A stretch of DNA of 64,000 bases from an uncultured Thermoleophilia bacterium (GCA_963785155.1 CAWAUB010000010.1:1829-65828); one strand, 5' to 3'. Counted from the stretch's first letter, positions 10,228 through 57,722 are shown. The notes: a model not told the origin generated them from the letters alone. Program-made: numbers and translations.

Positions 10228-11179
10228 TCAGCGCGAGGGATCGAGCAGCAGCTTGCCCTGGGTCGTCCGCGCCTGCAGGTCCTCATGTGCGCGGGCAACG
10301 TCGGAGAGCGGGTAGGTGCCTCCGATCACGACCTCGAGCTCGCCGTCGGCGAGGGCGGCGAGCAGCTCCCCGATCCCCTCGCGAAGCGCATCGGGCCGCG
10401 TGAACAGGTGCATCAGCCAGAACCCGACGACGGCGCGGCTCGTCGACATCAGCTTGCGGGTGTTCACCGTGTTCGAGTCGCCGGAGGCGATGCCGAACGT
10501 GACCAGGCGGCCGAACGGCGCCAGCGACGAGAGGCAGGCGTCGAAGATCTCCCCGCCCGCCATCTCGAGCACGACGTCGACCCGCTCGCCGCCGTTGGCC
10601 TCGATGATCGCGTCCTTCAGGTCGTCGGAGCGGTTGTCGACGGCCGCATCGGCGCCCAGCCGCATGGCCAGCTCGCGCTTCTCCTCGGATGAGGCCAGCG
10701 CGATCACGCGGCCGGCGCCGAATCGCTTCGCCAGCTGGACGGCGAGCGTGCCGGTGCCGCCGCCGGCCGCGCCGACGACGACCGATTCGCCGGGATCCAG
10801 CCGGCCGCTCACCCTCAGCATCGTTCGCGCGGTGAGTCCCTGCAGCAGGATCGCCGCGGCCTGGTCGTCGGTGACGCTGTCGGGCACCGGGACCAGCGCG
10901 GCCTCGGGGACGACCACCTTCTCCGCGTAGCCGCCGCCCGTCAGGAGAGCGGCGACGCGGCGGCCGTCGGCGGTCGTTGCCGCTGACCTCGCCGCCGGGG
11001 ATGAACGGCAGCTCGGCCTTCGCGAGGTACTCGTCACGGCGCTGGTGGGTGTCGGCGAAATTGATCCCCGCGCGGGCGACCTCGACCAGGACCTGGCCGT
11101 CGCCGGCCACGGGATCGGGCAGGTCGACCTGCTCGAGCACCTCGGGGCCGCCGAACTCGGATACCTGGATCGCGCGCAT
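10228..11179 (-). CDS. NADPH:quinone oxidoreductase / zeta-crystallin-type MDR dehydrogenase; one apparent frameshift near 10975
   Basis: The N-terminus is MRAIQVSEFGGPEVLEQVDLPDPVAGDGQVLVEVARAGINFADTHQRRDEY...PFIPGGEVSG (frame of 10283..11179). The remainder, TADGRRVAALLTGGGYAEKVVVP...VVVGAAGGGTGTLAVQLAKRFGA...TTQGKLLLDP, lies in the frame of 10228..11037. Confidence 0.75.
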
Positions 11180-12028: not shown

Positions 12029-13930
12029 CTAGCCCGGCATCTCGAGGAAGACCTCGTCGTCATCGGAGTCGGTGTCCTCCTCGCCGGTGCGCAGCTCGCT
12101 GAAGACCGCGGTGCGGCTGCGCTCGCCGCGGACGTCGTCGGCGACCACGTGGGCCACGGCGTTGATCAGCGACAGGTGGGTGAAGGCCTGCGGGAAGTTG
12201 CCGAGGAAGTCGCCGCTCTCCGCCTCGAGCTCCTCCGCGTAGAGGCCGAGGAAGCTCGCGTGCGCGAGCAGGCGCGCGCACGCGTCCTTCGCCATCCCCC
12301 GCTCGCCGATCTCCGAGAGCGCCGAGACGAGCCAGAACGAACAGATCATGAAGGCGCCCTCCTTGCCCGAGAGCCCGTCGTCGGTCTCCTCGACCTTGTA
12401 GCGGAGGACGAAGCCGTTCTCGGTCAGCTCGTCGTTGATCGCCATCACCGTGGCCCGCACGCGCTCGTCGTTGGGCGGCAGGAAGCGGACCAGCGGGATC
12501 AGCAGGGTCGACGCGTCGAGCGCGTCGGTGTCGTAGTGCTGGCGGAAGACGCCGCGCTCGGATACGCCACGGGCGAGCAGGTCCTCGCGCAGCGCGTCCG
12601 CCTCCGCCTTCCAGCGCTCCGCGTCCTCCGTCTCGCCGTGCTCGCGGGCAAGGCGCATACCGCGATCGAGCGCAACCCAGGACATGAGCTTCGACGAGGT
12701 GAAGTGCTTCGGCTCGCCGCGGACCTCCCAGATCCCGCGGTCGGGCTGGCGCCAGCTCTGGACCGCGCCCTCGACCTGGTCGTGGACCACCTGCCAGAAG
12801 CCGTCCGGCAGGCTCACCTGCCGCGCCCGGGTGTGGATGTAGACCGAGTCGAGGAAGGTCCCGTAGACGTCGTTCTGGCGTTGGTCCCACGCACCGTTGC
12901 CCACCCGGACGGGGCGCGCCCCCTTGTAGCCCGACAGCTGCGGCAGGGTCCGCTCGGGGAGCTCGCGCTCGCCGCCGATGCCGAACATGATCTGCGGGTC
13001 CGGACCCGCGTCCTGATAGAGGGTCCCCATGAAGGACATGAAGTTGAACGCCTCCCGGTCGAAGCCGAGGATGTGGAGGCCCCAGAGTGCGAACGAGGAG
13101 TCGCGGACCCAGCTGTAGCGGTAGTCCCAGTTGCGCTCGCCGTTCGGCGTCTCGGGCAGTGATGTGGTGAGCGCGGCGATCAGGGCTCCGGTCGGCTCGT
13201 AGACGAGACCCTTCAGAGCCAGGGCCGAGCGCTGCAGGTAGATCCGCCAGGGATGGTCGGGGAACTTGCCGCGTTCGAGCCAGTGGCGCCAGTACTTGAC
13301 GGTGGCGTCGATCCGCCGCGCCGCCTCGCCCGCGTCCTGCGGCGGCTTGATCCCGTCCCAGGAGAGGGCGCAAAAGCAGGACTCACCCTCCTTCAGGACC
13401 TGCCGCGAGATCGCTGCGCCGTCCTCGATCTCGATCGGGCCCGCGACGCCGAGGTGGAGCGGCTCGTCGACGCCCGGCACGTCCGTGCGCAGGATGCCGT
13501 CGCGGTCCTGAGCCCATCTGGCGGGCTTGGCGCCGTAGTTCAGCATCGGCTCGCAGTTGAGCTCGACCTCGACCTCGCCCCAGGTGCAGGTCGCGGTGCG
13601 GATCAACATCCCCTCGGGCTCGCCCTCGGCGGCGATCGCCAGCGCGTCGTGGACGACGAGCCAGTCGCCTCCCTCGGTCATCCAGGTGGTCTCGAGAACG
13701 TTGGTTCCGGGGACGTAGCGGGCCGCGGCAGGGACCCGGATTCCCTTCGGCGCGAAGCGGAAGGCGCCGGCGCTTCGGTCGAGGATCGCGCCGAAAACGC
13801 TCGGCGAATCGAAGCGCGGCAGGCACATCCACTCGACCGCACCGTCCGGAGCGACCAGGGCGCCGGTGCGGCCGTCCGAAAGGAAGCCGTACCGGGCGAT
13901 CGGGTAGTAGGTCGAAGCCGCAGCGCCCAT
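12029..13930 (-). CDS. Glycoside hydrolase family 15 (glucoamylase/trehalase-like)
   Basis: The 633-aa ORF starts with YYPIARYGFLSDGRTGALVAPDGAVEWMCLPRFDSPSVFGAILD and contains ALTTSLPETPNGERNWDYRYSWVRDSSF. These are characteristic of actinobacterial GH15 proteins. Confidence 0.9.
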   Translation of the reverse strand: MGAAASTYYPIARYGFLSDGRTGALVAPDGAVEWMCLPRFDSPSVFGAILDRSAGAFRFAPKGIRVPAAARYVPGTNVLETTWMTEGGDWLVVHDALAIAAEGEPEGMLIRTATCTWGEVEVELNCEPMLNYGAKPARWAQDRDGILRTDVPGVDEPLHLGVAGPIEIEDGAAISRQVLKEGESCFCALSWDGIKPPQDAGEAARRIDATVKYWRHWLERGKFPDHPWRIYLQRSALALKGLVYEPTGALIAALTTSLPETPNGERNWDYRYSWVRDSSFALWGLHILGFDREAFNFMSFMGTLYQDAGPDPQIMFGIGGERELPERTLPQLSGYKGARPVRVGNGAWDQRQNDVYGTFLDSVYIHTRARQVSLPDGFWQVVHDQVEGAVQSWRQPDRGIWEVRGEPKHFTSSKLMSWVALDRGMRLAREHGETEDAERWKAEADALREDLLARGVSERGVFRQHYDTDALDASTLLIPLVRFLPPNDERVRATVMAINDELTENGFVLRYKVEETDDGLSGKEGAFMICSFWLVSALSEIGERGMAKDACARLLAHASFLGLYAEELEAESGDFLGNFPQAFTHLSLINAVAHVVADDVRGERSRTAVFSELRTGEEDTDSDDDEVFLEMPG

Positions 13931-16585: not shown

Positions 16586-17935
16586 TTGGCCGAGGACACG
16601 CTTTCGATCACGGATAACCGCACCGGCGAGACGTACGACGTCGAGATCTCTGACGAGACCATCAAGACGATGGACCTCCGCCAGATCAAGGTCAACGACG
16701 ACGACTTCGGGATGATGGGATACGACCCGGCGTTCACGAACACCGCGTCCTGCCGGTCGGCGATCACCTACATCGACGGCGAGGCGGGTGTCCTCCAGCA
16801 CCGCGGGATCCCGATCGAGCAGCTCTGCGAGCACTCGTCCTACGTCGAGGTCGCCTACCTCCTGATCTTCGGCGAGCTGCCGACCGAGAAGCAGCTCGAG
16901 CGCTGGACCCACGACATCACCCACCACACCTTCGTCCACGAGGACATCAAGAACCTCTTCGAGACGTTCCGCTACGACGCCCACCCGATGGGGATGCTGC
17001 TCTCGGGCGTCGGCGCGCTCTCGACCTTCTATCCGGAGTCGAAGGAGATCGAAGACCACGAGGAGCGCTACATGGCGGCGATCAGGCTGATCGCCAAGGT
17101 GCCGACGCTCGCCGCGTTCGCCTACCGCCACAGCCTCGGCCTGCCGTACGTCTATCCCGACAACGACCTCAGCTACTCCGAGAACTTCCTCGGGATGATG
17201 CGGATGATGACCGAGGTGAAGTACGAGCCCGACCCGCGGCTCGCGAAGGCCCTCGACGTCCTCTTCATCCTGCACGCCGATCACGAGCAGAACTGCTCGA
17301 CCGCGGCGGTCCGCTCGGTCGGCTCGTCGCAGGTCGACCCTTATTCGGCGGTCGCCGCCGGCATCGCCGCGCTCTACGGACCGCTGCACGGCGGCGCCAA
17401 CGAGGCGGTGCTGAAGATGCTCCGCCGGATCGAGACGACCGACAACATCCCCGACTTCCTCGAGGGAGTGAAGAACCGGGACGAGAAGCTGATGGGCTTC
17501 GGCCACCGGGTCTACAAGAACTACGACCCCCGGGCACGGATCATCAAGCACCACGTCGAGGAGGTGCTCGAGGCGACCGGCGACAACCCGCTGCTCGACA
17601 TCGCCACCGAGCTCGAGAAGCGAGCCCTCGATGACGAGTTCTTCACCGAGCGCAAGCTCTATCCGAACGTCGATTTCTACTCCGGCCTCATCTACGAGGC
17701 GCTCGGCATCCCCGCCGACATGTTCACGGTGATCTTCGCGATCCCGCGTACATCGGGCTGGATCTCGCAGTGGATGGAGATGCTCGATGATCCCGACCTG
17801 AAGATCGCGCGTCCCCGCCAGATCTACACGGGCAAGCGCGACCAGGACTATGTGCCGGTCAGCGAGCGCTCCGGCGAAGAGAAGATCACCGGCCCGCCGG
17901 CGAAGCGGCCGAAGTTGCCGCGGCGCGGCGCCTGA
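16586..17935 (+). CDS. gltA: Citrate synthase (type II, hexameric-type)
   Basis: LSITDNRTGETYDVEI...GFGHRVYKNYDPRA...YPNVDFYSG. The likely start is the TTG at 16586, 5 nt after GGAGGG. Confidence 0.9.
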   Translation: MAEDTLSITDNRTGETYDVEISDETIKTMDLRQIKVNDDDFGMMGYDPAFTNTASCRSAITYIDGEAGVLQHRGIPIEQLCEHSSYVEVAYLLIFGELPTEKQLERWTHDITHHTFVHEDIKNLFETFRYDAHPMGMLLSGVGALSTFYPESKEIEDHEERYMAAIRLIAKVPTLAAFAYRHSLGLPYVYPDNDLSYSENFLGMMRMMTEVKYEPDPRLAKALDVLFILHADHEQNCSTAAVRSVGSSQVDPYSAVAAGIAALYGPLHGGANEAVLKMLRRIETTDNIPDFLEGVKNRDEKLMGFGHRVYKNYDPRARIIKHHVEEVLEATGDNPLLDIATELEKRALDDEFFTERKLYPNVDFYSGLIYEALGIPADMFTVIFAIPRTSGWISQWMEMLDDPDLKIARPRQIYTGKRDQDYVPVSERSGEEKITGPPAKRPKLPRRGA

Positions 17936-18027
17936 GGCACCCGCTGGCGACGTACAAGCTGACGATCCGGCGGGGCTCTTCGGTCGACCGGGAGAGTTTC
18001 GACAGGCTCGGAGACGCCGTCGAGACG

Positions 18028-18285
18028 ATGGAGGCCGAGGCTGAAGCCGTCGTCGCCGAGGGCCCGCTGCCGAAGCGCTCGATGATCCGCGACTACGAGC
18101 CCGAGACGCAGGTGGCCGCGCGATTCGAGATCTCGACCGGTGGGCTCCTCGGCGGCGACACCGCCGGGATCGACGTGATGGGCGACGGCAGGCTGGTCCC
18201 GTTCAAGGGAGGTATGGTGCGCCGAGAGCTGGAACCCAAGGGCGCGCAATCGCCGTTCGATGCGGTGCGCAAGGCCCTCCGGTAA
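18028..18285 (+). CDS. Small hypothetical protein
   Basis: The track ORF is 85 aa. The frame is open upstream to 17938 (HPLATYKLTIRRGSSVDRESFDRLGDAVET...), so the true start may be an upstream non-ATG codon. Confidence 0.4.
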   Translation: MEAEAEAVVAEGPLPKRSMIRDYEPETQVAARFEISTGGLLGGDTAGIDVMGDGRLVPFKGGMVRRELEPKGAQSPFDAVRKALR

Positions 18286-18303
18286 CGAACGAGGGAGACA
18301 GGG

Positions 18304-18843
18304 ATGGAAGCAGGACAGACACCGCCGCCGTCAGCGCGTCCGGGAAGGATCGGCGCCGCGGTGATCGTCGTCGCCGCGGTCACGTTGCTCGCAACGTTCC
18401 TCTTCCTTGACTACGTGGACTACGTCCAGACGTACAGCAACGCGCCGGCGTTCGGGGAGGAGCTGGTCCCTGGAGACGTGGGTTACGAGGCGCCAAGTTC
18501 GTACGAGAAAAAGTTCACGGGGATGGACATCTCCGACGAGGAAACCGATGGGTCGGCGATCTTCGTCTGGACGATCTTCGCCGGCGGGCTCGCGCTCATC
18601 GGCGGTCTGGTCGGACTTATCCCGGCCGTGGCAAGGCGGATCTGGGTCGTCGCGCTGCCGGTCGCGGTTGTCGCCGCGGGGTGGTGCATCTACTCCGCGA
18701 CCTGGTTCAACGGTGAGTACGAAGACCTCTCCCGAATGGGGCCCGGCGGAAAGATCTCGCTGGCCGCCGGAGTCGTGATCTTCATCGCCGCCATCGCCAC
18801 CAGCGTCGTCGTGGCAATGCGCAACCGCCGAACGGCGCCCTAG
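18304..18843 (+). CDS. Integral membrane protein of unknown function
   Basis: The 179-aa ORF has 4 predicted hydrophobic helices: AAVIVVAAVTLLATFLFL, IFVWTIFAGGLALIGGLVGLI, IWVVALPVAVVAAGWCIY and LAAGVVIFIAAIATSVVVA. Confidence 0.55.
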   Translation: MEAGQTPPPSARPGRIGAAVIVVAAVTLLATFLFLDYVDYVQTYSNAPAFGEELVPGDVGYEAPSSYEKKFTGMDISDEETDGSAIFVWTIFAGGLALIGGLVGLIPAVARRIWVVALPVAVVAAGWCIYSATWFNGEYEDLSRMGPGGKISLAAGVVIFIAAIATSVVVAMRNRRTAP

Positions 18844-18891
18844 CCGCTGCGGGGCGCCAGCGACACCGAGGTCCCGAAAGGCAGCGTCGCC

Positions 18892-19164
18892 GTGGGGCGG
18901 CGGGTGCGCCTCCCGGCCGGCGCCGGGGCACCGATCGCCGTCTACGTCAACGGCGTGCGCCAGAGCGAGGGCACGGACTACCGCCTGGCCGAGGGTGGGA
19001 TCGAGTTCGATCGCCAGATCATCAAGGAGCAGGTCAGCGGCGCCCGCTGGCTGGCGATGCTCCTCGGCCTGTTCGGGAGCTACGGAAAGAACGAAACGGT
19101 CGACGTGGAGTACCGGCTCCGCGGCGAGACGAAGCTGATCTCCGACGCGGAGATCCTGCCTTGA
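18892..19164 (+). CDS. Small hypothetical protein
   Basis: The ORF is 90 aa with host-like codon usage. It lies in the same frame as the two preceding ORFs and is separated from 18304..18843 by a TAG plus 16 sense codons. Confidence 0.4.
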   Translation: MGRRVRLPAGAGAPIAVYVNGVRQSEGTDYRLAEGGIEFDRQIIKEQVSGARWLAMLLGLFGSYGKNETVDVEYRLRGETKLISDAEILP

Positions 19165-23557: not shown

Positions 23558-25536
<1,979 letters not shown>

Positions 25537-25569: not shown

Positions 25570-26554
25570 TTAGAACGCGTACAGCAGCAGCAACGCGGTG
25601 CCCACCCAGACGACGGCGGCGGCGATCATCCCCGGGTCGCGGGTCAGGATCTCCGCGGTCGAGCGGGTATCGCCCCGGTCGTAGATCAGGTAGAGGTAAC
25701 GGAAGATCCCGTAGATCACCGGCGGCGCCGTCGCCAGCATCTCCGAGCCGATGAAGGGCGAGTCGACCGCATAGACGGCGTAGCTGATCACCGCCGCCGC
25801 GGTGACCATCGCGATCATCTGGTCGAGGAACGGCAGCGAGTAGTGCTCGAGGACGGGCGGGTGTACCCGGGCCCGGGGGGACCCGGACGCGAAGCGGAGG
25901 ATCCCCCGGCGATTGTTTCTCCTCCTGCATGGCCTCCTGGCGTCGCTTGGTGAAGCCGAGGAAGAGGGCGAGCATGCCGGTGCAGACGAGCAGCCACTCG
26001 GAGGCCTGCGCGTCCACGGCGACCGCGCCGGCGACGACGCGGAGGATGAAGAGCCCGGCGATCGTCATCACGTCGACGATCACGAGCCGCTTCAGGATCA
26101 ACGTGTAGGCGGCCGTCGCGACGCCGTAGCCCGCGACGATGGCGGCGACCTCGGCGGAGACGGTGAACCCGATCGCGATGGCGGCCGCTGCGAGGGCGAC
26201 CCCGACGGCGGCGGCGAGGCCCGGCGAGAGCTCCCCCGCCGCGATCGGCCGCCGCCGCTTCTCGTGGTGGCGGCGATCGTGCTCCGCGTCGCGCAGGTCG
26301 TTGAGCAGGTAGCCCGCGCTGGAGATCGCGCAGAAGGCGGCGAAGGTCAGCAGCGCCGCGCCGAACGGCTCCGCCTCGTCGAACTGCCGCGAGAAGATGA
26401 GCCCGGCGAAGACGAGCAGGTTCTTGACCCACTCCTGCGGCCGCATCGCGACGATTAGGGCGTGCAGGGTGGTCCGGCGTGGCGTGGGCGGCGTCATGGT
26501 GGGCGGCATTTCGGGAGGCGCAGGCCGCTCCCGGGTGAGCGATTCCATGGGCAA
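25570..26554 (-). CDS. UbiA-family prenyltransferase, decaprenyl-phosphate phosphoribosyltransferase-like; one apparent frameshift near 25905-25925
   Basis: The N-terminal 210 aa of track ORF 24368..26554 read MRPQEWVKNLLVFAGLIFS...YLLNDLRDAEHDRRHHEKRRRPIAAGELS. The C-terminus GILRFASG...VLEHYSLPFLDQMIAMVTAAAVISYAVYAV...VWVGTALLLLYAF lies in the frame of 25570..25818. Confidence 0.7.
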
Positions 26555-27361: not shown

Positions 27362-28989
27362 GAATCCCGTTTGGATCCACCGCCTTCTTCGCGCCGCGCA
27401 GCGCCTCCGCGAAGCGGTCCGGGCGCTGGCGGTCGTACCAGGGGCGGTGGTCTCGGCCGACGGCGTGGTGGTGGGTGATCGTGCCGCCGGCGTCGATCAC
27501 CGCGTCGGAGGCGGCGGCCTTGATCTCGTCCCACTGGGCGACCTCGGAGCCGCGGCGGCCGGGGGCGAGGATCGTGAAGTAGGGCGCCGGGCCGTCAGGG
27601 TAGACGTGGGTGAAGCGGCAGGAGACGCGGGCGGCGCCGGGGCCCTCGGCGGGCGCGCCGGTTACCTCGGCGACGGCGGCCCGGACCCGCTCGGAGACCC
27701 CGGCGTGGAACTCGGGAAAGCGGTCCCAGGTGATCGAGGTCTCGAAGGTGTCGGAGATCACGCCGCAGGCCACGAGCGTGTCGCGCAGGTAGGGCGCGGC
27801 GAGGAACGCGTGCCGCCAGGCCCGACCGCGTCACCGCCCAGGGCGGGTCACCCGACCGTCGGTGTGCGGCTCGGTCTGTCCGCCTCCCCTTCGATCTCGC
27901 CCGCCTTCCCCCCATGCCCCTGCGCCATCTCGATCACCGCCGCCATCGGCTCGTCCACCGGCACGTGCGCCGACTCGAAGCCGAGCACCAGGACGGCTAC
28001 GGACCCGTCCCCCGCCCCGGAGGTCTCCGCCTCGAGCGGATCGAGCAGGCGGCAGTTCGACGGGTTGAGGCCGGACTGCGCGATCTCGCGGACGGCCTCG
28101 GCGCCCGCCTCGAACGAGTCGAAGGCCACGCCGCACGAGAGCTTTGCCGTCGGCCGCGGGCGCACCCGGACCCAGGCCTCGGTGACCACGCCGAGCGTTC
28201 CCTCAGAGCCGATCAGCATCCGGTCGGGACTCGGCCCGGCTCCCGAACCCGGCAGCCGCCGGCTCTCCCACTCGCCCGTCGGTGTGATCGCCCGGACGGA
28301 CTCGACGAGGTCGTCGATGTGGGTGTAGAGCGTCGCGAAGTGCCCGCCGGCGCGGGTGACCACCCAGCCGCCGAGGGTCGAATACTCGAAGGACTGCGGG
28401 AAGTGGCGGAGGGTCAGCCCCCGCTCGCGCAGCTGGTCCTCGAGCGACGGACCCAGCGCGCCGGCCTGGATCCTCGCCGCGCTCGAGACCTCGTCGACCT
28501 CGAGGACGCGGTCGAGCCGGCCGAGGTCGATCGTGACCGCGCCCGGGTACTCGTCGCCGAAGCGCGGCTCGACGCCGCCGACGACGCTCGTGCCGCCGCC
28601 ATAGGGGATCGCCGCGATCCCCTCCTCCGCGCACCAGCCGAGCACCGCCTCGAGCTCGGCCTCATCAGCCGGGCGCGCGACCAGATCGGGCGGGTTCTCG
28701 AACTCGCCGCGAAAGCCGCGGACGACGTCCCGGTAGGCCTTGCCGAGGGCATGCGAGACGCGGTCGTGGCGGTCCGCGCCGACGAACCCGGCAAGCGAGC
28801 AGGCGCCTCGACCCGCGGTTCGCGCAGCTCGACGTCCTCGAGCGCCACCGGCTCGTCGATCCGCTCGACCTCGAAGCCGAGCCGCTCGTGGACCGCCTTC
28901 GCCGCCGCCTCGAGCCCGGCGCGGTCGGGCTGCTGGTCCTCCCAGCCCCAGCCCCAGTGCTTGCGCCGCCTCGTGCTCGTCGTCGCCAT
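27333..28989 (-). pseudogene. FAD-linked oxidase of the alkylglycerone-phosphate synthase (AGPS)-like type, with at least three lesions
   Basis: The N-terminus MATTSTRRRKHWGWGWEDQQPD has the WxGWG motif typical of AGPS-like proteins. The FAD domain reads AAIPYGGGTSVVGG...FPQSFEYSTLGGWVVTRAGGH. The C-terminus reads AWRHAFLAAPYLRDTLVACGVISDTFETSITW...GGTITHHHAVGRDH...NPGVLIDP. The three pieces lie in three frames: a frame change near 28800, an in-frame TGA at 27848-27850 and a frame change near 27820. Confidence 0.7.
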
Positions 28990-33390: not shown

Positions 33391-33505
33391 GCTCTCTCCT
33401 CCTAAGTAATTACGCCGAATCCTCCGCTTCGCGTCCGGTTCGGCTCGATCTCATCTGCATGAGATTCCGCTTTTAGCCCTGCGGCGTGACCCTACACTCC
33501 GAGCG

Positions 33506-34204: not shown

Positions 34205-34522
34205 ATGGCGAGCACGACCACGGTCGACATCGAGATGCCCCAGATGGGGGAATCGGTGACCGAGGGCACCGTCCTCGAATGGCACAAGAACGAGGGCGAT
34301 TTCGTCGAGGAGGGCGAGACCATCGTCGAGGTCTCGACGGACAAGGTCGACGCCGAGGTGCCGGCCCCCACGAGCGGAACGATCGCCAAGGTGCTGAAGC
34401 AGCCCGACGACGTCGTGAAGGTGGGCGAGGTGCTGGCCCAGCTCGAGCCGGGCGAAAATGGAGCCCAGCCCTCCGCGGACCCGGCCGCCCCCGGACGCGA
34501 AGCGGAGGAGGCGGACGCCTGA
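34205..34522 (+). CDS. Lipoyl domain 1 (E2-type lipoyl-attachment domain), ending at a TGA inside the linker
   Basis: MASTTTVDIEMPQMGESVTEGTVLEWHKNEGDFVEEGETIVEVSTDKVDAEVPAPTSGTIAKVLKQPDDVVKVGEVLAQLE, followed by a linker. The lipoyl-lysine lies in STDKVD. The ATG at 34205 follows AGGGGA. Confidence 0.75.
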   Translation: MASTTTVDIEMPQMGESVTEGTVLEWHKNEGDFVEEGETIVEVSTDKVDAEVPAPTSGTIAKVLKQPDDVVKVGEVLAQLEPGENGAQPSADPAAPGREAEEADA

Positions 34523-34590
34523 TCGAAGGCGGCGGCGAGGGCGACCAGGACCTCGGCGACGACGACGTCGACGGTCCGACGAGCCCGCAG

Positions 34591-34998
34591 CCGGGGTCTG
34601 ACCCGAGCCCGGACGGAAGCGTCGGAGCCCGCGGAGGCGCAGGGGTCTGACCCCATCAGTCGAAGCCGAGTCCGCCCAGCTGACGATGCCTGAAATGGGC
34701 GAATCGGTCACCGAGGGCACCGTCCTCGAGTGGCATAAGCAGGAGGGCGAGAGCTTCGCCGAGGGCGACACGCTGGTCGAGGTCTCGACCGACAAGGTCG
34801 ACGCCGAGGTGCCCGCGCCGGGCGACGGCACCCTGACCAAGATCCTCAAGCAGCCCGACGAGATCGTGAAGGTGGGCGAGGCGCTGGCCGACCTGTAGCC
34901 TGGGAGCGAGCGCGGGAGGAGAACCGAGCGCGGGGTCTGAGCCCGAGCCCAGCGGCAACGCCGGAGCCCGCGGCGAACAGGGGTCTGACCCCACAGTC
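34591..34998 (+). repeat. Two homologous linker segments (34591-34660 and 34930-34998), each carrying two copies of a GGGGTCTGA(C/G)CC motif
   Basis: This is from direct reading. The motif is GGGGTCTGACCCG at 34593, GGGGTCTGACCCC at 34642-34654 and GGGGTCTGAGCCC at 34932. The fourth copy is GGGGTCTGACCCC at 34980-34992. The two perfect copies are inverted repeats (GGGGTC-T-GACCCC). Confidence 0.7.
34686..34898 (+). CDS. Lipoyl domain 2, with no convincing independent start, ending at a TAG
   Basis: MPEMGESVTEGTVLEWHKQEGESFAEGDTLVEVSTDKVDAEVPAPGDGTLTKILKQPDEIVKVGEALADL. The first beta-strand residues (SAQLT) lie upstream of the ATG in the same frame. The TAG at 34896 aligns with GAG of domain 1. 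Confidence 0.65.
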   Translation: MPEMGESVTEGTVLEWHKQEGESFAEGDTLVEVSTDKVDAEVPAPGDGTLTKILKQPDEIVKVGEALADL

Positions 34999-35073
34999 GC
35001 CACCCCAACCGGCGACGCCGACGGCAAGGCCTCCCCCGTAGCCCGTCGCGTAGCGGCGGCGAAGGGCGTCGAC

Positions 35074-38000
35074 TTGACTTCCGTCCGGGGCACCGGGATC
35101 GGCGGCAAGATCACCCGCGACGACGTGCTGATGGCCGCCGGTGGCGGCAACGGAGCCGCTCCCTCCGCCGCGCCGGCGCCGCCGGCCGAGGCCGAAACGA
35201 AGGTCCTACGCGGGCCCGCCGGGATGCTCGCGCAGGCGATGAACGAGAGCCGCGAGATGCCCACGGCCACCTCGTTCCGCACCCTTCCGGTCGACGTCCT
35301 CGATGCGAAGCGCAAGGCGCTGAACGGCGTCCTGAAGGACCGGGGCATGAAGCTGTCCTTCACCCACCTGATCGCCTGGGCGATCGTCCGCGCGGCGGCC
35401 GAGGACCACCCGTCGATGGCCCGCACCTACGCCGAGGAGGGCGGCAAGCCGGTCCTCGTCGACCACGGCCAGGTCAACCTGGGGATCGCCGTCGACGTCG
35501 AGCGCAAGGGCGAGCGCAGCCTGATGGTGCCCTGCATCAAGGGAGCGGACGGCGGCGGCTTCGACAGCTTCCACGCGATGTACGAGGAGCTGATCACCAA
35601 GACCCGAGAGAACAAGCTGACCGCGGACGACTTCCAGGGCACCAACATCACCCTGACCAACCCGGGCGGGATCGGCACGATCGCCTCGGTGCCGCGGCTG
35701 ATGAAGGGTCAGGGCACGATCGTCGCGACCGGCTCGATCGCGCTGCCGGTCGAGTGGACGCACGCGCCTCCGGAGAAGACCAAGTCGCTCGGAATCTCGA
35801 AGGTGATGACGATGACGTCCACCTACGACCACCGGATCATCCAGGGCGCCGAATCCGGCGCGTTCTTGCGCCGGATCGAGCAGCTCCTGCTCGGCGAGGA
35901 CTCCTTCTACGAGTCGGTCGCCGAGGACCTCGAGGTCAGCACCAACATCGTCAGCAAGGCTCACCCCGCCTCCGCCTCCGCCCCGCCGATGCCCGCCGCG
36001 GCCGCCGCCGCGCCATCCGCGGTCACCACCGCAAAGCCCGACGAAGAGCTGCTGCAGGCGGTGCAGGCGGCGACCTCCTTGCTCAAGGCCTACCGCACTC
36101 ACGGCCACCTCGCCGCGCGGCTCGACCCGCTCGGCTCCGAGCCGAAGGGCGACCCGGCGATCCAGCCGGAGAACCTCAACCTGACCCCCGAGCTGATGGC
36201 CGACATCCCGGCCCACATCCTCCGCATCGGCGTCCAGGGCGAGACGCTGCTCGACGCGCTGCCGCGGATGCAGAGCGTCTACTGCGACACCGCCGGCTAC
36301 CAATTCGAGCACCTGTCATCACACCAGCAGCGGGTCTGGCTGCGCGAGATGATCGAGACCGCGTCGCACCGCAAGGCGCTCACATCCGACGAGAAGCGCC
36401 AGCTCCTGCATCGCCTGATCGACGTCTTCCAGTTCGAGCGCTTCATCCAGAAGGCCTACCTGGGGCAGAAGATGTTCTCGATCGAGGGCCTCGACGCGAC
36501 GGTGCCGATGCTCGACGAGGTCGCGACGATCGGCCAGCGCGACGGCGCGCGCGAGATCGTCCTCGGCATGGCCCATCGCGGCCGGCTCAGCGTCCTCGCC
36601 CACAACTTCGGCCGCTCGGTCGAGTCGATCTTCGCCGAGTTCGAGGGCGCGAAGGCGATCGACACGGTGAAGGCGGCGACCGCGATGCCACACGGCGGCA
36701 CGGGCGACGTCAAGTACCACCACGGGGCCGAGGGGATGTTCGACACCCGCGACGGCGAGCAGATCAAGATGCGCCTCTACCCGAACCCGAGCCACCTCGA
36801 GTTCGTCGACCCGGTCGTCGAGGGCGGCACGCGCGCCGACCAGACCGGTCACTCGGGGCCGAAGCTCCATCACAACCCCGAGTCGGTCGTCCCGGTGCTC
36901 CTGCATGGCGACGCCGCCTTCCCCGGCCAGGGCGTCGTCGCCGAGACGCTGAACCTGCAGGCGCTCGACGGCTACTCGACCGGCGGCACGATCCACATCA
37001 TCCAGAACAACCAGGTGGGCTTCACGACGAACCCGACTGAGAGCCGGTCGACCCCCTACGCCGCCGACATGGCGAAGGGCTTCAACGTCCCGATCATCCA
37101 CGTCAACGCCGACGACGTGGAGGCCTGCATCGGCGCGATCCGGCTCGCGATGGCCTACCGCAAGGAATGGGGGCGCGACGTCGTCATCGACCTGATCGGC
37201 TACCGCCGCTACGGACACAACGAATCCGACGAGCCCGCCTACACGCAGCCGAAGATGGCTGGGGCGATCAAGGAGCACGCGCCCGTCTCCGAGCTCTACG
37301 CGGAGAAGATGGTCAAGGAGGGCGTCGTCACCGTCGAGGACGTCGACACCGAGGCGAAGGAGCGCCGCGAAGACCTCTCGAGCCGGCTCAAGGACCTGAG
37401 GGCGAAGATCGAGCTCGGTGAGTACGAGGACCCGAGCTCGACCGCGGTCGGCACCGGCGAGCTCGACCGCTCGAAGAGCCCCGAGGTCGAGACGGCGGTC
37501 AAGGAGAAGCGCCTTCGCTCCCTCAACGAAGAGCTGCTCCAGGTTCCGGAGAGCTTCTCGATCCACCGCAAGCTGCGCAAGCCGCTGCTCCGCCGCGACG
37601 ATCTACTCGAGAACGGGCCGATCGAGTTCGGCCACGCCGAGGCGCTCGCCTTCGCGACGCTCCTCACGGAGGGGACCCACATCCGCCTGACCGGCCAGGA
37701 CTCCGAGCGCGGCACCTTCTCCCACCGCCACCTGACCCTGCACGACGAGAAGACGGGGCTCGAGTACTCGCCGATCCAGAACCTCTCCGGCGCCCTCGCC
37801 CCGTTCGAGCTCTACAACAGCCCGCTCTCGGAGATCGCCTGCCTGGGCTTCGAGTACGGCTACGCCGCCGCCTCACCGGAGAGCCTGATCCTCTGGGAGG
37901 CGCAATTCGGCGACTTCGCCAACGCGGCGCAGGTGATCATCGACAGCTTCATCGTCTCCGGCGAGGCGAAGTGGGGCCAGATGACGCGGCTCACCCTGCT

Positions 38001-38652
38001 CCTCCCGCACGGCTACGAGGGCTCCGGCCCCGAGCACTCGAGCGCCCGCATCGAGCGCTTCCTCGCCCTCGGTGCCGAGGGCAACATCCGCATCGCCAAC
38101 CCGACCACCGCGGCCCAGTACTTCCACCTGCTCCGCCGCCAGGCGCGGATCGCGAAGGCGCGGCCCCTGATCGTCTTCACCCCGAAGGGCCTGCTGCGGC
38201 TCGAAGCCGCGGCGTCGAAGCTCTCGGACCTGACCGAGGGCAGCTTCCAGTTCGTCATCGACGACCCGCGCGCCGAGGGCCGCCACGAGGAGATCGAGCG
38301 CCTCGTGCTGTGCTCGGGCAAGGTCTATTACGACATCGACGCGAGCGAGAACCGCGAGAAGGCGAAGACGACCGCGGTCGCCCGGGTCGAGCTGCTCTAC
38401 CCGTTCGCCCGCAGCGAGCTGACCGAGCTGATCGGCAGCTACCCCAACCTGAAGCAGGTGGTCTGGGCCCAGGAGGAACCGCAGAACATGGGCCCGTACA
38501 AGGTCCTCTCGCGGCGGATCGAGAAGCTCGTCCCCAAGGGCACCGAGTTCCGTTACATCGGCCGCCCGCAGCGCGCGGCGCCCTCCGAGGGCTACCCCGC
38601 GGCGCACCGCAACGAACAGACGCGCATCGTCCTCACGGCCCTTCAGGGCTGA
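35074..38652 (+). CDS. kgd: Multifunctional 2-oxoglutarate dehydrogenase, Kgd/OdhA type: E3-binding domain, E2 acyltransferase domain and E1o
   Basis: The track ORF is 1192 aa. The frame is open upstream to 34897 and already encodes ASPVARRVAAAKGVDLTSVRGTGIGGKITRDDV (PSBD). The E2 core reads FTHLIAWAIV...TSTYDHRIIQGAESGAFLRRIEQLL. The E1o part reads AYRTHGHLAARLDPLG...GMAHRGRLSVLAH...HGDAAFPGQGVV...FGDFANAAQVIID. Confidence 0.9.
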   Translation: MTSVRGTGIGGKITRDDVLMAAGGGNGAAPSAAPAPPAEAETKVLRGPAGMLAQAMNESREMPTATSFRTLPVDVLDAKRKALNGVLKDRGMKLSFTHLIAWAIVRAAAEDHPSMARTYAEEGGKPVLVDHGQVNLGIAVDVERKGERSLMVPCIKGADGGGFDSFHAMYEELITKTRENKLTADDFQGTNITLTNPGGIGTIASVPRLMKGQGTIVATGSIALPVEWTHAPPEKTKSLGISKVMTMTSTYDHRIIQGAESGAFLRRIEQLLLGEDSFYESVAEDLEVSTNIVSKAHPASASAPPMPAAAAAAPSAVTTAKPDEELLQAVQAATSLLKAYRTHGHLAARLDPLGSEPKGDPAIQPENLNLTPELMADIPAHILRIGVQGETLLDALPRMQSVYCDTAGYQFEHLSSHQQRVWLREMIETASHRKALTSDEKRQLLHRLIDVFQFERFIQKAYLGQKMFSIEGLDATVPMLDEVATIGQRDGAREIVLGMAHRGRLSVLAHNFGRSVESIFAEFEGAKAIDTVKAATAMPHGGTGDVKYHHGAEGMFDTRDGEQIKMRLYPNPSHLEFVDPVVEGGTRADQTGHSGPKLHHNPESVVPVLLHGDAAFPGQGVVAETLNLQALDGYSTGGTIHIIQNNQVGFTTNPTESRSTPYAADMAKGFNVPIIHVNADDVEACIGAIRLAMAYRKEWGRDVVIDLIGYRRYGHNESDEPAYTQPKMAGAIKEHAPVSELYAEKMVKEGVVTVEDVDTEAKERREDLSSRLKDLRAKIELGEYEDPSSTAVGTGELDRSKSPEVETAVKEKRLRSLNEELLQVPESFSIHRKLRKPLLRRDDLLENGPIEFGHAEALAFATLLTEGTHIRLTGQDSERGTFSHRHLTLHDEKTGLEYSPIQNLSGALAPFELYNSPLSEIACLGFEYGYAAASPESLILWEAQFGDFANAAQVIIDSFIVSGEAKWGQMTRLTLLLPHGYEGSGPEHSSARIERFLALGAEGNIRIANPTTAAQYFHLLRRQARIAKARPLIVFTPKGLLRLEAAASKLSDLTEGSFQFVIDDPRAEGRHEEIERLVLCSGKVYYDIDASENREKAKTTAVARVELLYPFARSELTELIGSYPNLKQVVWAQEEPQNMGPYKVLSRRIEKLVPKGTEFRYIGRPQRAAPSEGYPAAHRNEQTRIVLTALQG

Positions 38653-38739: not shown

Positions 38740-40620
38740 TTGAGTAAGGCCGTCGAAGAGAAGGAGCGGGTTGTAGTCCGGTTCGCCGGGGACTCCGGCG
38801 ACGGCATCCAGCTCGCGGGCACTCGCTTCGCGGCGGCGACGGCGATGATCGGGAACGACCTGGTCACGCTGCCGGACTTCCCGGCGGAGATCAGGGCGCC
38901 GGCGGGAACCCTGGCCGGGGTCTCGGCTTTCCAGATCCACTTCGCCTCGCGCCACATCCTCACCCCGGGCGCGCAGCCGAACGTGCTCGTCGCGATGAAC
39001 CCGGCCGCGCTGAAGGTGAACCTCCCGCAGCTGGGCCGAAGCGGCATCATCATCGTCAACGAGGACGGCTTCTCCGAGCACAACCTGCGCAAGGCCGAGT
39101 ACGAGTCGAACCCGCTCGAGGACGGCACGCTCGACGACCTCCGCGTCTACCGCGTACCGATGACCTCGATGACGGTGCGGGCGACGGAGGGGATCGACGG
39201 GATCAGCTCGCGCGACGCCGCGCGGTCGAAGAACTTCTTCGCCCTCGGCCTCGTCTCCTGGATGTACAGCCGCCCGACCGACGTCACGGTCGACTGGATC
39301 GAGGACAAGTTCTCCGAGACCGAGGACGTCAGGGAGGCCAACCTCGCCGCGTTCCGCGCCGGCTACAACTTCGGCGAGACCGCCGAGCTGCTCCAGGTCC
39401 ACTACGAGGTGAAGCCGGCCGAGGCCGAGCCGGGCACCTATCGCGGCGTGAACGGGACGACGGCGACCGCGCTCGGGCTCGTGGCGGCGAGCGTCCGCAG
39501 CGGTCTCCCGCTCTTCCTGGCGAGCTACCCGATCACACCGGCGTCGGAGATCCTCCACGAGCTCTCCCGCCAGCGTCGCTTCGGCGTCCGCACCGTTCAG
39601 GCCGAGGACGAGATCGCCGCCGCCAATATGGCGCTCGGAGCGGCGTTCGGCGGCCACCTCGGCGTCACCGCGACGAGCGGCCCGGGCATGGACCTGAAGG
39701 CGGAGACGATCGGGCTCGCGGTGGCGCTCGAGCTGCCGCTGCTCGTGATCGACGTCCAGCGCGCCGGCCCTTCGACCGGGATGCCGACCAAGACCGAGGC
39801 GGCCGACCTGCTGATGGCGATCCACGGCCGCCACGGCGAGTCGCCCCTGCCGGTCATCGCCGCCTCCTCCCCGGCCCAGTGCTTCGACGCGGTGATCGAG
39901 GCGGCGCGGATCGCGGTGACCTACCGGACGCCGGTGATCCTCCTGACCGACACCTTCATCGCCAACTCGTCGGAGCCGTGGCGGCTGCCGAACGCCGCGG
40001 ACCTTCCCGAGTTCGATCCGCACTTCGCGACGGAGCCGAACAAGGGCGACGAGTTCTGGCCGTATCTGCGCGACGAGCGTGGCGCGCGGCCCTGGGCGCT
40101 GCCGGGAACCGAGGGCCTCCAGCACGTGATCGGCGGGCTCGAGAAGGAGGAGGGCACCGGCCACATCTCCTACGACGCCGCCAACCACTCGGAGATGACC
40201 CGCCTCAGGGCGGAGAAGATCGCCGGGATCGCCGGCGAGATCGATGAGCTCGAGGTGGACGACCCCGACGGAGCGGAGATGCTGGTGCTCGGCTGGGGCT
40301 CCACCTACGGCGCGGTCAAGGGCGCCGTGCGCCGGGTCCGGCTGCGCGGCGAGAAGGTCGCCCGGGCGCACCTGCATCACCTGAACCCGCTGCCGCGCAA
40401 CACCGGGGAGGTGGTCCGCTCCTACTCGAAGGTGTTGGTGCCCGAGACCAACACCGGCCAGCTGAGCCGGATCCTCCGCGACGAGTTCCTCGTCGACGTC
40501 GAGGGCTACAACAAGGTCGAGGGCATCCCGATCTTTGCCGAGGAGCTCGACGAAATCATCACCGACCGGATCCTCCGAACTATGGGACGCGTCCGAGTCC
40601 GGCCGGGCGCGGGTAGATGA
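38740..40620 (+). CDS. korA: 2-oxoglutarate:ferredoxin oxidoreductase, alpha subunit
   Basis: The ORF is 626 aa: VRFAGDSGDGIQLAGTRFAAATAMIGNDLVTLPDFPAEIRAPAGTLAGVSAFQIHF...YPITPASEILHEL...ATSGPGMDLK. Confidence 0.9.
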   Translation: MSKAVEEKERVVVRFAGDSGDGIQLAGTRFAAATAMIGNDLVTLPDFPAEIRAPAGTLAGVSAFQIHFASRHILTPGAQPNVLVAMNPAALKVNLPQLGRSGIIIVNEDGFSEHNLRKAEYESNPLEDGTLDDLRVYRVPMTSMTVRATEGIDGISSRDAARSKNFFALGLVSWMYSRPTDVTVDWIEDKFSETEDVREANLAAFRAGYNFGETAELLQVHYEVKPAEAEPGTYRGVNGTTATALGLVAASVRSGLPLFLASYPITPASEILHELSRQRRFGVRTVQAEDEIAAANMALGAAFGGHLGVTATSGPGMDLKAETIGLAVALELPLLVIDVQRAGPSTGMPTKTEAADLLMAIHGRHGESPLPVIAASSPAQCFDAVIEAARIAVTYRTPVILLTDTFIANSSEPWRLPNAADLPEFDPHFATEPNKGDEFWPYLRDERGARPWALPGTEGLQHVIGGLEKEEGTGHISYDAANHSEMTRLRAEKIAGIAGEIDELEVDDPDGAEMLVLGWGSTYGAVKGAVRRVRLRGEKVARAHLHHLNPLPRNTGEVVRSYSKVLVPETNTGQLSRILRDEFLVDVEGYNKVEGIPIFAEELDEIITDRILRTMGRVRVRPGAGR

Positions 40621-41643
40621 GTCTCAACGGAGACAGCGCGCTCGAGCCTGACGAAGAAGGACTTCGCCTCCGACCAGGAGACGCGCTGGTGCCCGGGCTG
40701 CGGCGACTACGCGATCCTCGCCACGGTCCAGCAGTTCCTGCCCGAGCTCGACCTGCCGCCGGAGCGGCACGTCTTCATCGCCGGGATCGGCTGCTCCGGC
40801 CGCTTCGCCTACTACATGAACACCTACGGGATGCACGGCATCCACGGCCGCGCGCCGGCGATCGCGACCGGCATCGCGCTCGCGCGGCCCGACCTCTCGG
40901 TCTGGGTCGTGACGGGTGACGGCGACGGCCTCTCGATCGGCGGCAACCACCTGATCCACGCGCTGCGGCGGAACGTCCCGATCAAGATTTTGCTCTTCAA
41001 CAACCAGATCTACGGGCTGACCAAGGGCCAGTACTCACCGACCTCGGAGCAGGGCAAGGTCACCAAGTCCACCCCGTTCGGCTCCCACGACCATCCGTTC
41101 AACCCGATCGCGCTCGCGCTCGGCGCCGAGGCCAGCTTCGCCGCGCGCACCGTCGACACCGACCGCACGCACCAGGCGGAGGTCCTTCGCGCCGCTGCCG
41201 AACACGAGGGCTCCTCCTTCGTCGAGATCTACCAGAACTGCAACGTCTTCAACGACGGCGCCTTCGAGGCCGTGCGCGGCAAGCGCCGGGCGGAGAACCA
41301 GATCCGCCTGGAGCACGGTGAGCCGATCCGCTTCGGCGCCGAGCTCGAGCGCGGCATCGTCCGCGGCGACGACCAGCGGCTCGGCATCGCGGAGATCGCC
41401 GACGTCGGTGAGGACGCGCTGCTCGTCCACGACGCCCACGACCCGAACCCCAGCCAGGCCTTCGCCCTCGCCCACCTCGCCGAGCTGCCGACCGGGCCGA
41501 CCCCGATCGGCATCTTCCGCGACATCGACCGCCCGGTCTACGCCGAGGCGCTCACCAACAAGCTCGAGGGCGAGCACGGCCAGGCCGGCCCGGCGGAGCT
41601 CGACGCCCTGCTCCGCTCGGGCGACACCTGGACCGTTACCTAG
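40617..41643 (+). CDS. korB: 2-oxoglutarate:ferredoxin oxidoreductase, beta subunit; one apparent frameshift near 40640-40650
   Basis: The ATG at 40617 overlaps the korA stop (ATGA). After about 10 codons the sensible frame shifts (own translation): LTKKDFASDQETRWCPGCGDYAILATVQQFLPEL...IAGIGCSGRFAYYMNTYGMHGIHGRAPAIATG...VTGDGDGLSIGGNH. That frame continues to 41643. Confidence 0.8.
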
Positions 41644-48928: not shown

Positions 48929-49872
48929 GCATTCAGTATCCCCGATAGGCGAGCTCGCAACACCTCTGAGCGTGCGCCCGACGAACAGCGGCGCGTGGGC
49001 GACATGGAAGTGGGTGAAGCGCAACCGTTCGAGAGCCCGGCCACGGCGTGCGCCTGGTCGCTGCCGTGCGTCGTCCGCTTGCTTCGCTGCCGTGCGGTGG
49101 TAGCGGAGGCTGTCGGTTTCGACGACGAGGCCTAGATCCGGCCAGAAGAAGTCGACCTTGAAGCCGTTGATCCATTGCTGGGTGAGCGGTGGCGGGAGGC
49201 CGGCGCGAGCGGCGATCGGGAGGAAGAGGCGCTCGAGCTCGGTGGTTGGGAGATGGAGGGCGTACTTGAGGAGGGTTCGTCGGAGGGTGGCGATTCCCGC
49301 GCGGCGTGGCTGTTCTTCCAGCGAGGCGAGTAGGGCGGGCGGGGAGATGCGGTCGAGTCGGTCGGCTTCGTTGATGGCGTGCTCGAGCTGGCGGGGGCCG
49401 ACGGTTGCGGCGAGGTCGATGAGGGTGAGGGTTGGGCTGGTGGTGGGGAGGCCGGCGTGGATGATCACGTCCTGCGGGTCGCAGGACGCGGCGGTGGACC
49501 TGGATTCCCGGGTGATCGACGAACAACTGCGGCATGTAGAGAGATGTGTACGGGGCCGGCGTGGTGCCATTCGATGCCCAGGTGGCTCGCCGCGTCGTCG
49601 TGACTCAGGGCGATGAGCTCGGGGCCTGGCGGGTGCTTCCAGCCACAGGCGAGCAGCGCCGCGATCCGCTCGCCACGCGTGGAGAGCTCACGACGGCCCA
49701 CGGCATACACGCCGCGATGCCGCGGATGTAGCCGTCCCTCACGGACCCGATGCTCGATCGCGTGCCTGTCCGAGCCCCAACTCGGCGAGCTGCCATCGAC
49801 GCAACCGCCCACTCCTGCTCCCGCGCGATCCGCCAGATCCGCGCTCGACTGTGCACTTTTACCGGCCATCAC
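48929..49872 (-). pseudogene. Degraded DUF559 / AbiEi-N-like gene relic, second copy
   Basis: Fragments lie in several frames: IAREQEWAV, then [43 protein letters not shown]. Further fragments are [37 protein letters not shown] and [49 protein letters not shown], then [11 protein letters not shown]. The last fragment reads without a stop into the acnA ATG. Confidence 0.55.
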
Positions 49873-57036: not shown

Positions 57037-57722
57037 ACGAGAGCATCTGCGCAGGGATGCGGGCCGGCGTCGCCTATGCGGTCGCGGCGGGCGTGCTCGG
57101 CATCTCCTACGGCGTCGTCGCCGAGCCCGTCCTGGGCGGCGCCGCGACGATCGTCTTCTCGGCCATCGTCTTCGCCGGCGCCGCCCAGTTCGCGGCGACC
57201 GCGGTGCTCGGCGCCGGAGGCGGAGCGCTCGCCGCGATCATCGCCGGCCTCCTGCTCAATGCCCGCTATGGGCCGATGGGGGTTGCTCTCGCGCCGTCCC
57301 TGCGCGGACGGGCCTGGCGGCGCGCCGCGACGGGCCAGGCGATGATCGACGCCTCCTGGGCGATGGCTCATCGGGGAGAGGGCCGTTACGACCCCGCCTT
57401 CATGGTCGGGGCCACCCTCCCCTCCATCCCGGCCTGGATCGGCGGGACAGCGATCGGGGTCCTCGCCGGCGACGTGATCGGCGACCCCGAGGCGCTCGGT
57501 CTCGACGTCCTCTTCCCCGCCTTCTTCCTCGCCCTGCTCGCCTCCGAGCTGCGGACCAAGCGCGGACGCGGCGCGGCCGCGATCGGCGCCGCGATCGCCC
57601 TCGTGCTGACCCCATTCACGCCGCCGGGGGTACCGATCTTGGCGGCTTCAGTAGGCGCATTCCTCGGCCTGCGTGGGCCCGGCCGAACCGGACGCGAAGC
57701 GGAGGATTCGGACGGTGTCTGA
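57033..57722 (+). CDS. azlC: AzlC-family branched-chain amino acid permease/exporter subunit
   Basis: GISYGVVA...IVFAGAAQFAATAVLGAGGGALAAIIAGLLLNARYGPMG. The GTG start overlaps the stop of the phosphatase gene (GTGA). Confidence 0.8.
   Translation: MNESICAGMRAGVAYAVAAGVLGISYGVVAEPVLGGAATIVFSAIVFAGAAQFAATAVLGAGGGALAAIIAGLLLNARYGPMGVALAPSLRGRAWRRAATGQAMIDASWAMAHRGEGRYDPAFMVGATLPSIPAWIGGTAIGVLAGDVIGDPEALGLDVLFPAFFLALLASELRTKRGRGAAAIGAAIALVLTPFTPPGVPILAASVGAFLGLRGPGRTGREAEDSDGV

Follow-up and report, generated by a model that had tools for sequence, protein, structure and literature searches.

At positions 34205–38652 on the plus strand of a 64,000-nt stretch of bacterial DNA (GCA_963785155.1, CAWAUB010000010.1:1829-65828; the whole stretch is referred to below as the window) lies an odhA-like locus in which the modules of a 2-oxoglutarate dehydrogenase (ODH) fusion protein are distributed over three reading frames. 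The listing of open reading frames (ORFs) and stop codons gives a first ORF in frame 2 (34205–34522, closed by TGA at 34520–34522), a second in frame 0 (34686–34898, closed by TAG at 34896–34898) and a long reading frame in frame 1, which is free of stops from 34870 until 38650–38652 and in which homology to orthologues starts at 34897. Profile searches find PF00364 twice, followed by PF02817, PF00198, PF00676, PF02779 and PF16870, all collinear along the locus. These correspond to two lipoyl domains (Lip1 and Lip2), a peripheral-subunit-binding domain (PSBD), an E2o acyltransferase core and E1o (Table 1). A preliminary description of this DNA had reported two complete lipoyl domains, a PSBD, E2 core and full E1o in frame from 34897, the TGA at 34520 and the TAG at 34896, and a collinear order of modules with interruptions confined to the linkers. 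Each of these observations is borne out by the ORF listing and the Pfam matches.

The native start codon is ATG 34205 (MASTTTVDIEMPQMGESV), and the N-terminus is identical to those of orthologues P0001–P0004. The Lip1 and Lip2 segments share 80% identity at the DNA level, and the lipoyl-lysine motif STDKVDAEV is unbroken in both. Between the E2 core and E1o the frame remains open with no stop codon. No match to 2-oxogl_dehyd_N (PF16078) was found among the proteins of the locus at E ≤ 0.01, and no other E2 or lipoyl locus was found within the window. The public gene calls for this contig divide the locus into products of 105, 70 and 1192 amino acids, the last of which begins at TTG 35074. This is the first ATG, GTG or TTG codon of the long frame and it lies in the middle of the PSBD.

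Table 1. Features of the odhA-like locus, palindromic elements and other disrupted genes in the window (positions in nt of the window unless a contig is named).
Feature	Position	Strand	Frame	Basis or remark
Gene start and lipoyl domain 1	34205–34444	+	2	Biotin_lipoyl 9.2e-22, aa 8–80
Linker 1 (Lip1–Lip2), holds lesions 1 and 2	34445–34676	+	2, 1, 0	GC3 plot, DNA alignments
Hairpin element in linker 1	34485–34514	+		Stem CCGCC/GGCGG around core CCGGACGCGAAGCGGAGGA; encodes PAAPGREAEEAD cassette
Lesion 1, one base missing	34517–34522	+	2 to 1	Alignments with relatives; repair verified
Acidic linker motif LIEGGGEGDQDLGDDDVD	34519–34572	+	1	GGGEGDxDLG-like in 84/118 intact orthologues
Lesion 2, one base missing or two extra	34606–34646	+	1 to 0	Frames; located to this interval
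Lipoyl domain 2	34677–34895	+	0	Biotin_lipoyl 1.9e-20
Lesion 3, one extra T	34896	+	0 to 1	DNA alignment CTGT[A]GCCTGGG vs CTGT-CCCTGGG; repair verified
Linker 2 (Lip2–PSBD)	34897–35025	+	1	Two GGGGTCTGA(C/G)CCC palindromes at 34932, 34980
PSBD (E3-binding)	35026–35130	+	1	E3_binding 1.5e-11, aa 43–77 of translation from 34900
E2o acyltransferase core (..STYDHRIIQGAESGAF..)	35209–35889	+	1	2-oxoacid_dh 3.9e-44; NF008907 1465 bits
E1o proper	36493–38652	+	1	Pfam; NF006914 and TIGR00239 above cut-offs
E1_dh	36493–37386	+	1	Pfam 5e-52
Transket_pyr	37621–38199	+	1	Pfam 6.5e-45
OxoGdeHyase_C	38215–38643	+	1	Pfam 1.1e-41
Stop codon	38650–38652	+	1
Hairpin element copies	25871–25910, 34485–34514, 57675–57720	+
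Hairpin element copy	33414–33444	-
13-nt palindrome GGGGTCTGACCCC	34593–34605, 34642–34654, 34932–34944, 34980–34992			Also in L001 (10624, 10672) and L003 (1204, 1246)
Aconitase	~47563			1-nt insertion; both halves 88% identical to L001
AbiEi-like gene	~49480–49515			Split; comparison with syntenic relatives
FAD-linked oxidase	~27857–27878, ~28786–28798			Broken twice
UbiA prenyltransferase	25871–25876			Extra G in G6 run; G5 would restore frame and stem symmetry
Zn-dependent alcohol dehydrogenase	~10940–10990			Split Pfam domain
GH15/TREH_N glycosidase	~24740–25160			Split Pfam domain

Frame lesions and their repair

In a frame plot of G+C content at third codon positions (GC3) the coding signal moves from frame 2 to frame 1 (~34520–34640), then to frame 0 and back to frame 1, so that there are three frame changes, all within linkers. 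In linker 1 the coding frame is 2 up to ~34516, 1 over ~34516–34645 and 0 thereafter, and the frame-1 peptide of this linker, LIEGGGEGDQDLGDDDVDGPTSPQPG, matches orthologues P0001, P0002 and P0003. The frame changes that the preliminary description placed around 34520–34650 are confirmed and resolve into two separate shifts at ~34517–34519 and ~34606–34646.

At the first of these a sequence expected as GAC G(G)C CTG ATC now reads GAC GCC TGA, and the TGA that closes the first ORF is an out-of-frame CTG ATC (Leu-Ile) homologous to TTG GTC (Leu-Val) in a related contig, L003. Relatives read EEADG..L[VI]EGGGEGD at this point and restoration of the missing base gives EEADG-LIEGGGEGD. The simplest repair of the second lesion extends the G4 run at 34642–34645 to G5, which yields ...GARGGAGGLTPSVEAESAQLTMPEMG and a continuous ORF. 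At the third, the extra T creates the TAG of the second ORF; when it is deleted the sequence reads CTG AGC CTG GGA, encoding LSLG, the same as in the relatives (LSLGA). With these three 1-nt edits the locus becomes a single ORF of 1482 amino acids, which aligns over residues 1–1482 with residues 1–1471 of P0001 at 83.6% identity. The orthologous DNA of the relatives is in frame at all three sites.

The frame-1 peptide LIEGGGEGDQDLGDDDV..SPQPG matches a linker motif that is kept in intact orthologues. The path from frame 2 through frame 1 to frame 0 is validated by this stretch, since LIEGGGEGDQDLGDDDV corresponds to the motif found in 84 of the 118. The motif is acidic and its consensus, L(V/I)EGGGEGD(E/Q/A)D(L/I)GD(D/E), stands inside an otherwise variable Lip1–Lip2 linker. 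Synonymous changes in its DNA leave the protein sequence conserved, and the motif may be a docking motif.

Orthologues and known architectures

The conceptual joined translation (1480 amino acids) was used as the query in a search for orthologues and the best 120 matches were considered. Among these, 118 are intact proteins of more than 1400 residues (1426–1585 amino acids), with 69–84% identity, 100% query coverage and the same set of Pfam domains; two lipoyl-lysine motifs are present in 115 of the 118. In the JGI and NCBI resources they are named 'multifunctional 2-oxoglutarate metabolism enzyme' or 'multifunctional oxoglutarate decarboxylase/.../succinyltransferase subunit'. The nearest genomes are metagenome-assembled genomes (MAGs) of Solirubrobacterales/Thermoleophilia, with 68–70% identity over residues 1–1450, and from these matches we infer that the lineage of the window belongs to the class Thermoleophilia. 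When the locus was compared with relatives by synteny and tblastn, a check suggested in the preliminary description, the syntenic contig L001 was found to carry the gene as one uninterrupted ORF of 1452 codons. The neighbours in L001 are those of the window: an SDR/epimerase fusion upstream, and KorA/KorB-like proteins, GSDH and aconitase downstream.

The classical enzymes OdhA (Corynebacterium glutamicum) and Kgd (Mycobacterium) have the E2o core N-terminal to E1o, as is the case here, and share a DHRxIQG-type E2 motif (PMC10415282). They contain neither a lipoyl domain nor a PSBD and rely in trans on the lipoyl arms of the pyruvate dehydrogenase (PDH) E2 (bioRxiv 10.1101/2020.07.24.212647; PMC10415282), a contrast which the preliminary description drew correctly, as both this literature and the Pfam set of the present locus indicate. 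The NCBIfam equivalog model for Kgd/OdhA, NF008907, is matched with 1465 bits against a cut-off of 878, at profile positions 119–1240 only. Because the match begins at position 119, the OdhA N-terminus has been replaced: Lip-Lip-PSBD stands here in place of the first ~118 profile positions. Compared with canonical SucA and SucB, the catalytic modules are the same and the E2 part has the same Lip-PSBD-core order, but the E2 core is not the end of a protein: it has no stop of its own and its C-terminus is not free. The SucB-type models TIGR01347, NF004309 and TIGR02927 give partial matches, the first two of them below their cut-offs.

The preliminary description held that the architecture would be undescribed whichever way the interruptions were read. 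This claim fails because OdhA orthologues that bear lipoyl domains are common (118 or more are intact, with the identities given above) and because the arrangement has been described: Bruch et al. (bioRxiv 10.1101/2020.07.24.212647, section 9, Fig. 5; later PNAS 2021) reported a Thermoleophilia 'LB-PS-E2-E1 full fusion', known to them from three genomes. The domain order is the same as at the present locus (two Biotin_lipoyl, E3_binding, 2-oxoacid_dh and the E1o domains), and both are without 2-oxogl_dehyd_N; the difference is that in the window three interruptions break the frame within the linkers, whereas the orthologues are intact. The Lip-Lip-PSBD-E2-E1 architecture is thus already known. 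Having been reported in 2020/2021 and being represented now by hundreds of database entries, it carries little weight as a discovery. No later paper characterizing a full-fusion enzyme was found in a literature search.

The published distribution (three genomes in 2020) is modestly extended. Intact Lip-Lip-PSBD-E2-E1 ORFs also occur outside Actinomycetota, in MAGs of Eremiobacterota/Baltobacteraceae (L013 and L020). We also note that a form with one lipoyl domain is encoded on a complete Thermoleophilia chromosome (L005), that within Thermoleophilia the Gaiellaceae (L019) have a plain E1o, and that Gemmatimonadales, Acidobacteriota and Acidimicrobiales (L014, L023 and L041) have the classical OdhA type with an E1o-type N-terminus.

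By homology with OdhA/Kgd (PMC10415282) and with canonical E2o, the E1o part of the full fusion would decarboxylate 2-oxoglutarate and succinylate a lipoyl-lysine, the E2o core would pass the succinyl group to CoA to give succinyl-CoA, and the PSBD would recruit or dock E3. With two N-terminal lipoyl arms of its own the enzyme would have no need to borrow those of the PDH E2. Both this function and the self-sufficiency of the protein are argued by analogy; Bruch et al. likewise speculated that the full fusion works without lipoyl domains in trans (bioRxiv 10.1101/2020.07.24.212647), and had thereby already asked whether the PDH E2 core is dispensable for a self-contained E2o-E1o that has lipoyl arms of its own.

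Origin of the frame lesions

In our view, the locus is most likely a single full-fusion gene, Lip-Lip-PSBD-E2o-E1o, of approximately 1482 codons, whose three breaks are single-base assembly indels. We would place the probability of this interpretation, which draws on sequence comparison, at about 0.85. It was one of three readings offered in the preliminary description and is the best supported of them, by the repairs, by synteny and by frameshifts across the window. The split is regarded as a probable artefact because frameshifts are found window-wide, because a related contig is broken at different positions, because the parts cut off show no relaxed constraint and because signals for separate expression are absent.

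Frameshifts elsewhere in the window were detected as split Pfam domains and by tblastn against syntenic relatives; detection by GC3 alone was dropped as unspecific, since most frame switches coincide with gene boundaries. At least seven lesions lie outside the odhA-like gene, in at least six other genes (Table 1) whose sequence is highly conserved apart from the breaks, so that the window contains at least ten when those of the odhA-like gene are included. For the assembly this amounts to roughly one indel every 6 kb. The related MAG contig L204 (ENA ERZ25039504 contig_158294), which carries P0042, shows no fewer than eight breaks over 24 kb, at positions other than those of the window. Its acyl-CoA dehydrogenase is in four ORFs, its aconitase in three or four pieces and its GSDH in three, and the breaks in its odhA-like gene fall in linker 1 and at residue 1349/1350. 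Since these breaks lie elsewhere, and since L204 agrees with L001 at the site of the aconitase lesion of the window, the lesions are independent and not inherited. With respect to constraint, the window departs from the 118 orthologues at four of 100 conserved Lip/PSBD columns, in each case conservatively, compared with 22 of 698 in E2/E1. The lipoyl and PSBD parts that have been cut off thus show no relaxed constraint. The indels may be residual long-read errors, or may stem from a consensus formed across strain variants in hypervariable, hairpin-rich linkers.

Several observations weigh against this interpretation. The odhA-like gene has three lesions in 4.4 kb, where the rate elsewhere would predict ~0.5 (Poisson P ~0.016), and all three fall within ~400 nt of linker. 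Of the lesions in the window, which number at least ten, two (lesion 1 of the odhA-like gene and that of UbiA) coincide with copies of a hairpin element (described below) or lie no more than a few nt away, and such sites could be truly mutable rather than error-prone. That the indels are errors is itself an inference from sequence comparison. We consider it unlikely overall that the lesions are genuine and recent.

If they are genuine, the foremost explanation is a real and recent pseudogenization or splitting, in which the strain is losing its lipoyl/PSBD arm and represents a natural intermediate towards a Kgd/OdhA-like E2-E1. This is essentially the 'snapshot' of lipoyl-arm loss of the preliminary description. 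The lesions do lie close together in the N-terminal linkers and leave 3.7 kb of E2-E1 unbroken, the modules cut off are exactly those that classical OdhA is without, and hairpin-rich linkers could be true mutational hot spots. However, similar 1-nt indels also break the aconitase, FAD oxidase, UbiA and other genes scattered over the window, and Lip1, Lip2 and the PSBD show no excess of substitutions. Furthermore, the residual E2-E1 frame would have no start before the TTG within the PSBD and lacks the 2-oxogl_dehyd_N-type N-terminus used by OdhA, and all 118 close relatives among the best 120 matches are intact. We accordingly regard loss of the arm as improbable.

It is more doubtful still that the indels are genuine and that the linkers became mutational hot spots after colonization by the hairpin element, which would leave either a free 105-residue lipoyl carrier beside a truncated E2-E1 or a gene read by hairpin-associated recoding. 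In the free-carrier case the locus would represent an extant intermediate linking classical OdhA with the Thermoleophilia full fusion.

A functional split, with Lip1 (105 residues) and Lip2 (70 residues) serving as free lipoyl carriers for a separate PSBD-E2-E1 protein, had also been suggested in the preliminary description. It is consistent with the native start of Lip1 and its termination at a stop codon, and with the three products of the public gene calls. It is disfavoured in that neither Lip2 nor the PSBD has a start codon or Shine–Dalgarno (SD) sequence of its own. ATG 34686 encodes the Met that is conserved in the MPEMGESV motif, the sequence upstream of it (SAQLT) continues in the open frame with homology to orthologues, and an SD-like sequence was looked for upstream of this codon and none was found; by this evidence ATG 34686 is not a start codon. 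The 1192-residue call starts inside the PSBD, and the arrangement is seen in no intact relative. A functional split is thus very improbable.

Hairpin-associated translational bypassing is exemplified by T4 gene 60 and the byp elements of Magnusiomyces. Recoding of real frame changes at the present locus, by programmed frameshifting, transcriptional slippage or such bypassing, has in its favour that lesion 1 adjoins the 3' side of a stable hairpin and precedes a stop codon, that lesion 3 formally requires a +1 shift at CUG UAG C and that the UbiA break is also within a hairpin element, but it is the least credible explanation, as slippery heptamers and matching take-off and landing codons are both absent from the locus, the sites are not conserved and the relatives are simply in frame, orthologues and ~20 other ORFs contain the hairpin element in frame, and other lesions (for example that in aconitase) lack such a context.

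We return to the preferred interpretation of a single gene broken by assembly indels, which has a cautionary side. Multi-domain genes whose linkers are of low complexity and rich in hairpins break into plausible small ORFs in error-prone MAGs, and such fragments (here of 105, 70 and 1192 residues) are taken into protein databases as apparently genuine entries. The fragments of L204 likewise stand as separate protein-database entries, of which P0042 is an example.

Palindromic elements and neighbouring genes

The hairpin element of linker 1 contains an exact 19-mer, CCGGACGCGAAGCGGAGGA, which occurs four times in the window, at 25883, 34491 and 57688 on the plus strand and at 33420 on the minus strand. 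The linker 1 copy (34491–34509) encodes PGREAEE. The same 19-mer was found in at least 120 soil-metagenome stretches (loci L084–L203). The constant apical part of ~19–20 nt holds a GCGAAGC mini-hairpin and GGAGGA, and the core folds as a CC/GG step followed by a CGC-GAA-GCG mini-hairpin. The flanking stem of 5–10 bp differs in sequence between copies while its complementarity is kept, i.e. it covaries: a stem of at least 6 bp is present in 90 of 129 distinct copies, compared with a mean of 9.9 (maximum 17) when partners are shuffled, and 30 distinct stems are represented among the copies. The element matched no family in an Rfam search.

Most copies lie at gene junctions with no bias in orientation, and about 20 of 118 are in frame within ORFs. 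A cassette derived from the hairpin (PG[RSG]EAEE or PRARQDD) is present in 25 of the 118 odhA-like orthologues, at three linker positions, in forms such as PAAPG(R/S/G)EAEEA(D/G)G or AAPRARQDDSEEADG; the window copy is at 34478–34519. Orthologues bearing it include P0001–P0003, P0006, P0011–P0013, P0019, P0029, P0040, P0049 and P0079, and L001 reads the same DNA core in another frame (EPDAKAEDSAGG). The UbiA gene of the window carries a copy that is absent from its relative L204. To judge from these sequences, the element has repeatedly colonized the interdomain linkers of full-fusion ODH. Two ways in which it might have accounted for the lesions were ruled out. Some copies end in ..GCCTGA, which raised the possibility that the TGA at 34520 is part of the element, but as shown above it is an out-of-frame CTG ATC. 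Excision of the hairpin would not restore the frame either, as the linker 1 element is 30 nt long and in frame and the UbiA break is an extra G in the G-run of the stem.

Repetitive extragenic palindromic (REP) elements and Rickettsia palindromic elements (RPEs) are short dispersed palindromes. The present element resembles both in being a dispersed palindrome located mostly at gene junctions in either orientation and in sometimes lying in frame within ORFs, to which it adds a peptide cassette. At ~30–40 nt it is much shorter than RPEs, and its constant apical loop with a covarying stem is the reverse of the situation in typical REPs. Nothing relevant was found when the literature was searched for palindromic elements lying in frame in Actinobacteria. 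The hairpin element may be a more original lead than the fusion protein, as a mobile palindrome of small size from which flexible linkers gain peptide cassettes. We also note tandem arrays of the hairpin in some metagenome contigs, composed of three copies at a spacing of 39 nt or of two at 45 nt (L166, 539–636; L170, ~12284–12380 on the minus strand; L143, 5174–5238), which may be in-frame peptide repeats.

A 13-nt palindrome, GGGGTCTGACCCC, recurs in the linkers in pairs 42–49 nt apart, compared with 0.24 occurrences expected by chance, and was not found elsewhere in the window. In linker 2 of the relatives its DNA is kept amid hypervariable linker sequence, and the translation is GSDP, GLTP or GV* according to frame. 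Possibly this palindrome represents a second small element.

Two further regions of the window deserve mention. At 17791–19161 on the plus strand, three segments in the same frame (17791–18282, 18286–18840 and 18844–19161) are separated by single stop codons. Their GC3 values of 0.87–0.94 are coding-like and none of them has a Pfam match; the region could be one gene with in-frame stops or three abutting small genes. Directly downstream of the odhA-like gene, at 38740–41640 on the plus strand, is a two-subunit 2-oxoacid:ferredoxin oxidoreductase (POR_N/POR and TPP_enzyme_C), with synteny in L001 (14445–17278). As this enzyme adjoins the ODH fusion, two alternative 2-oxoacid-oxidizing systems are encoded side by side.

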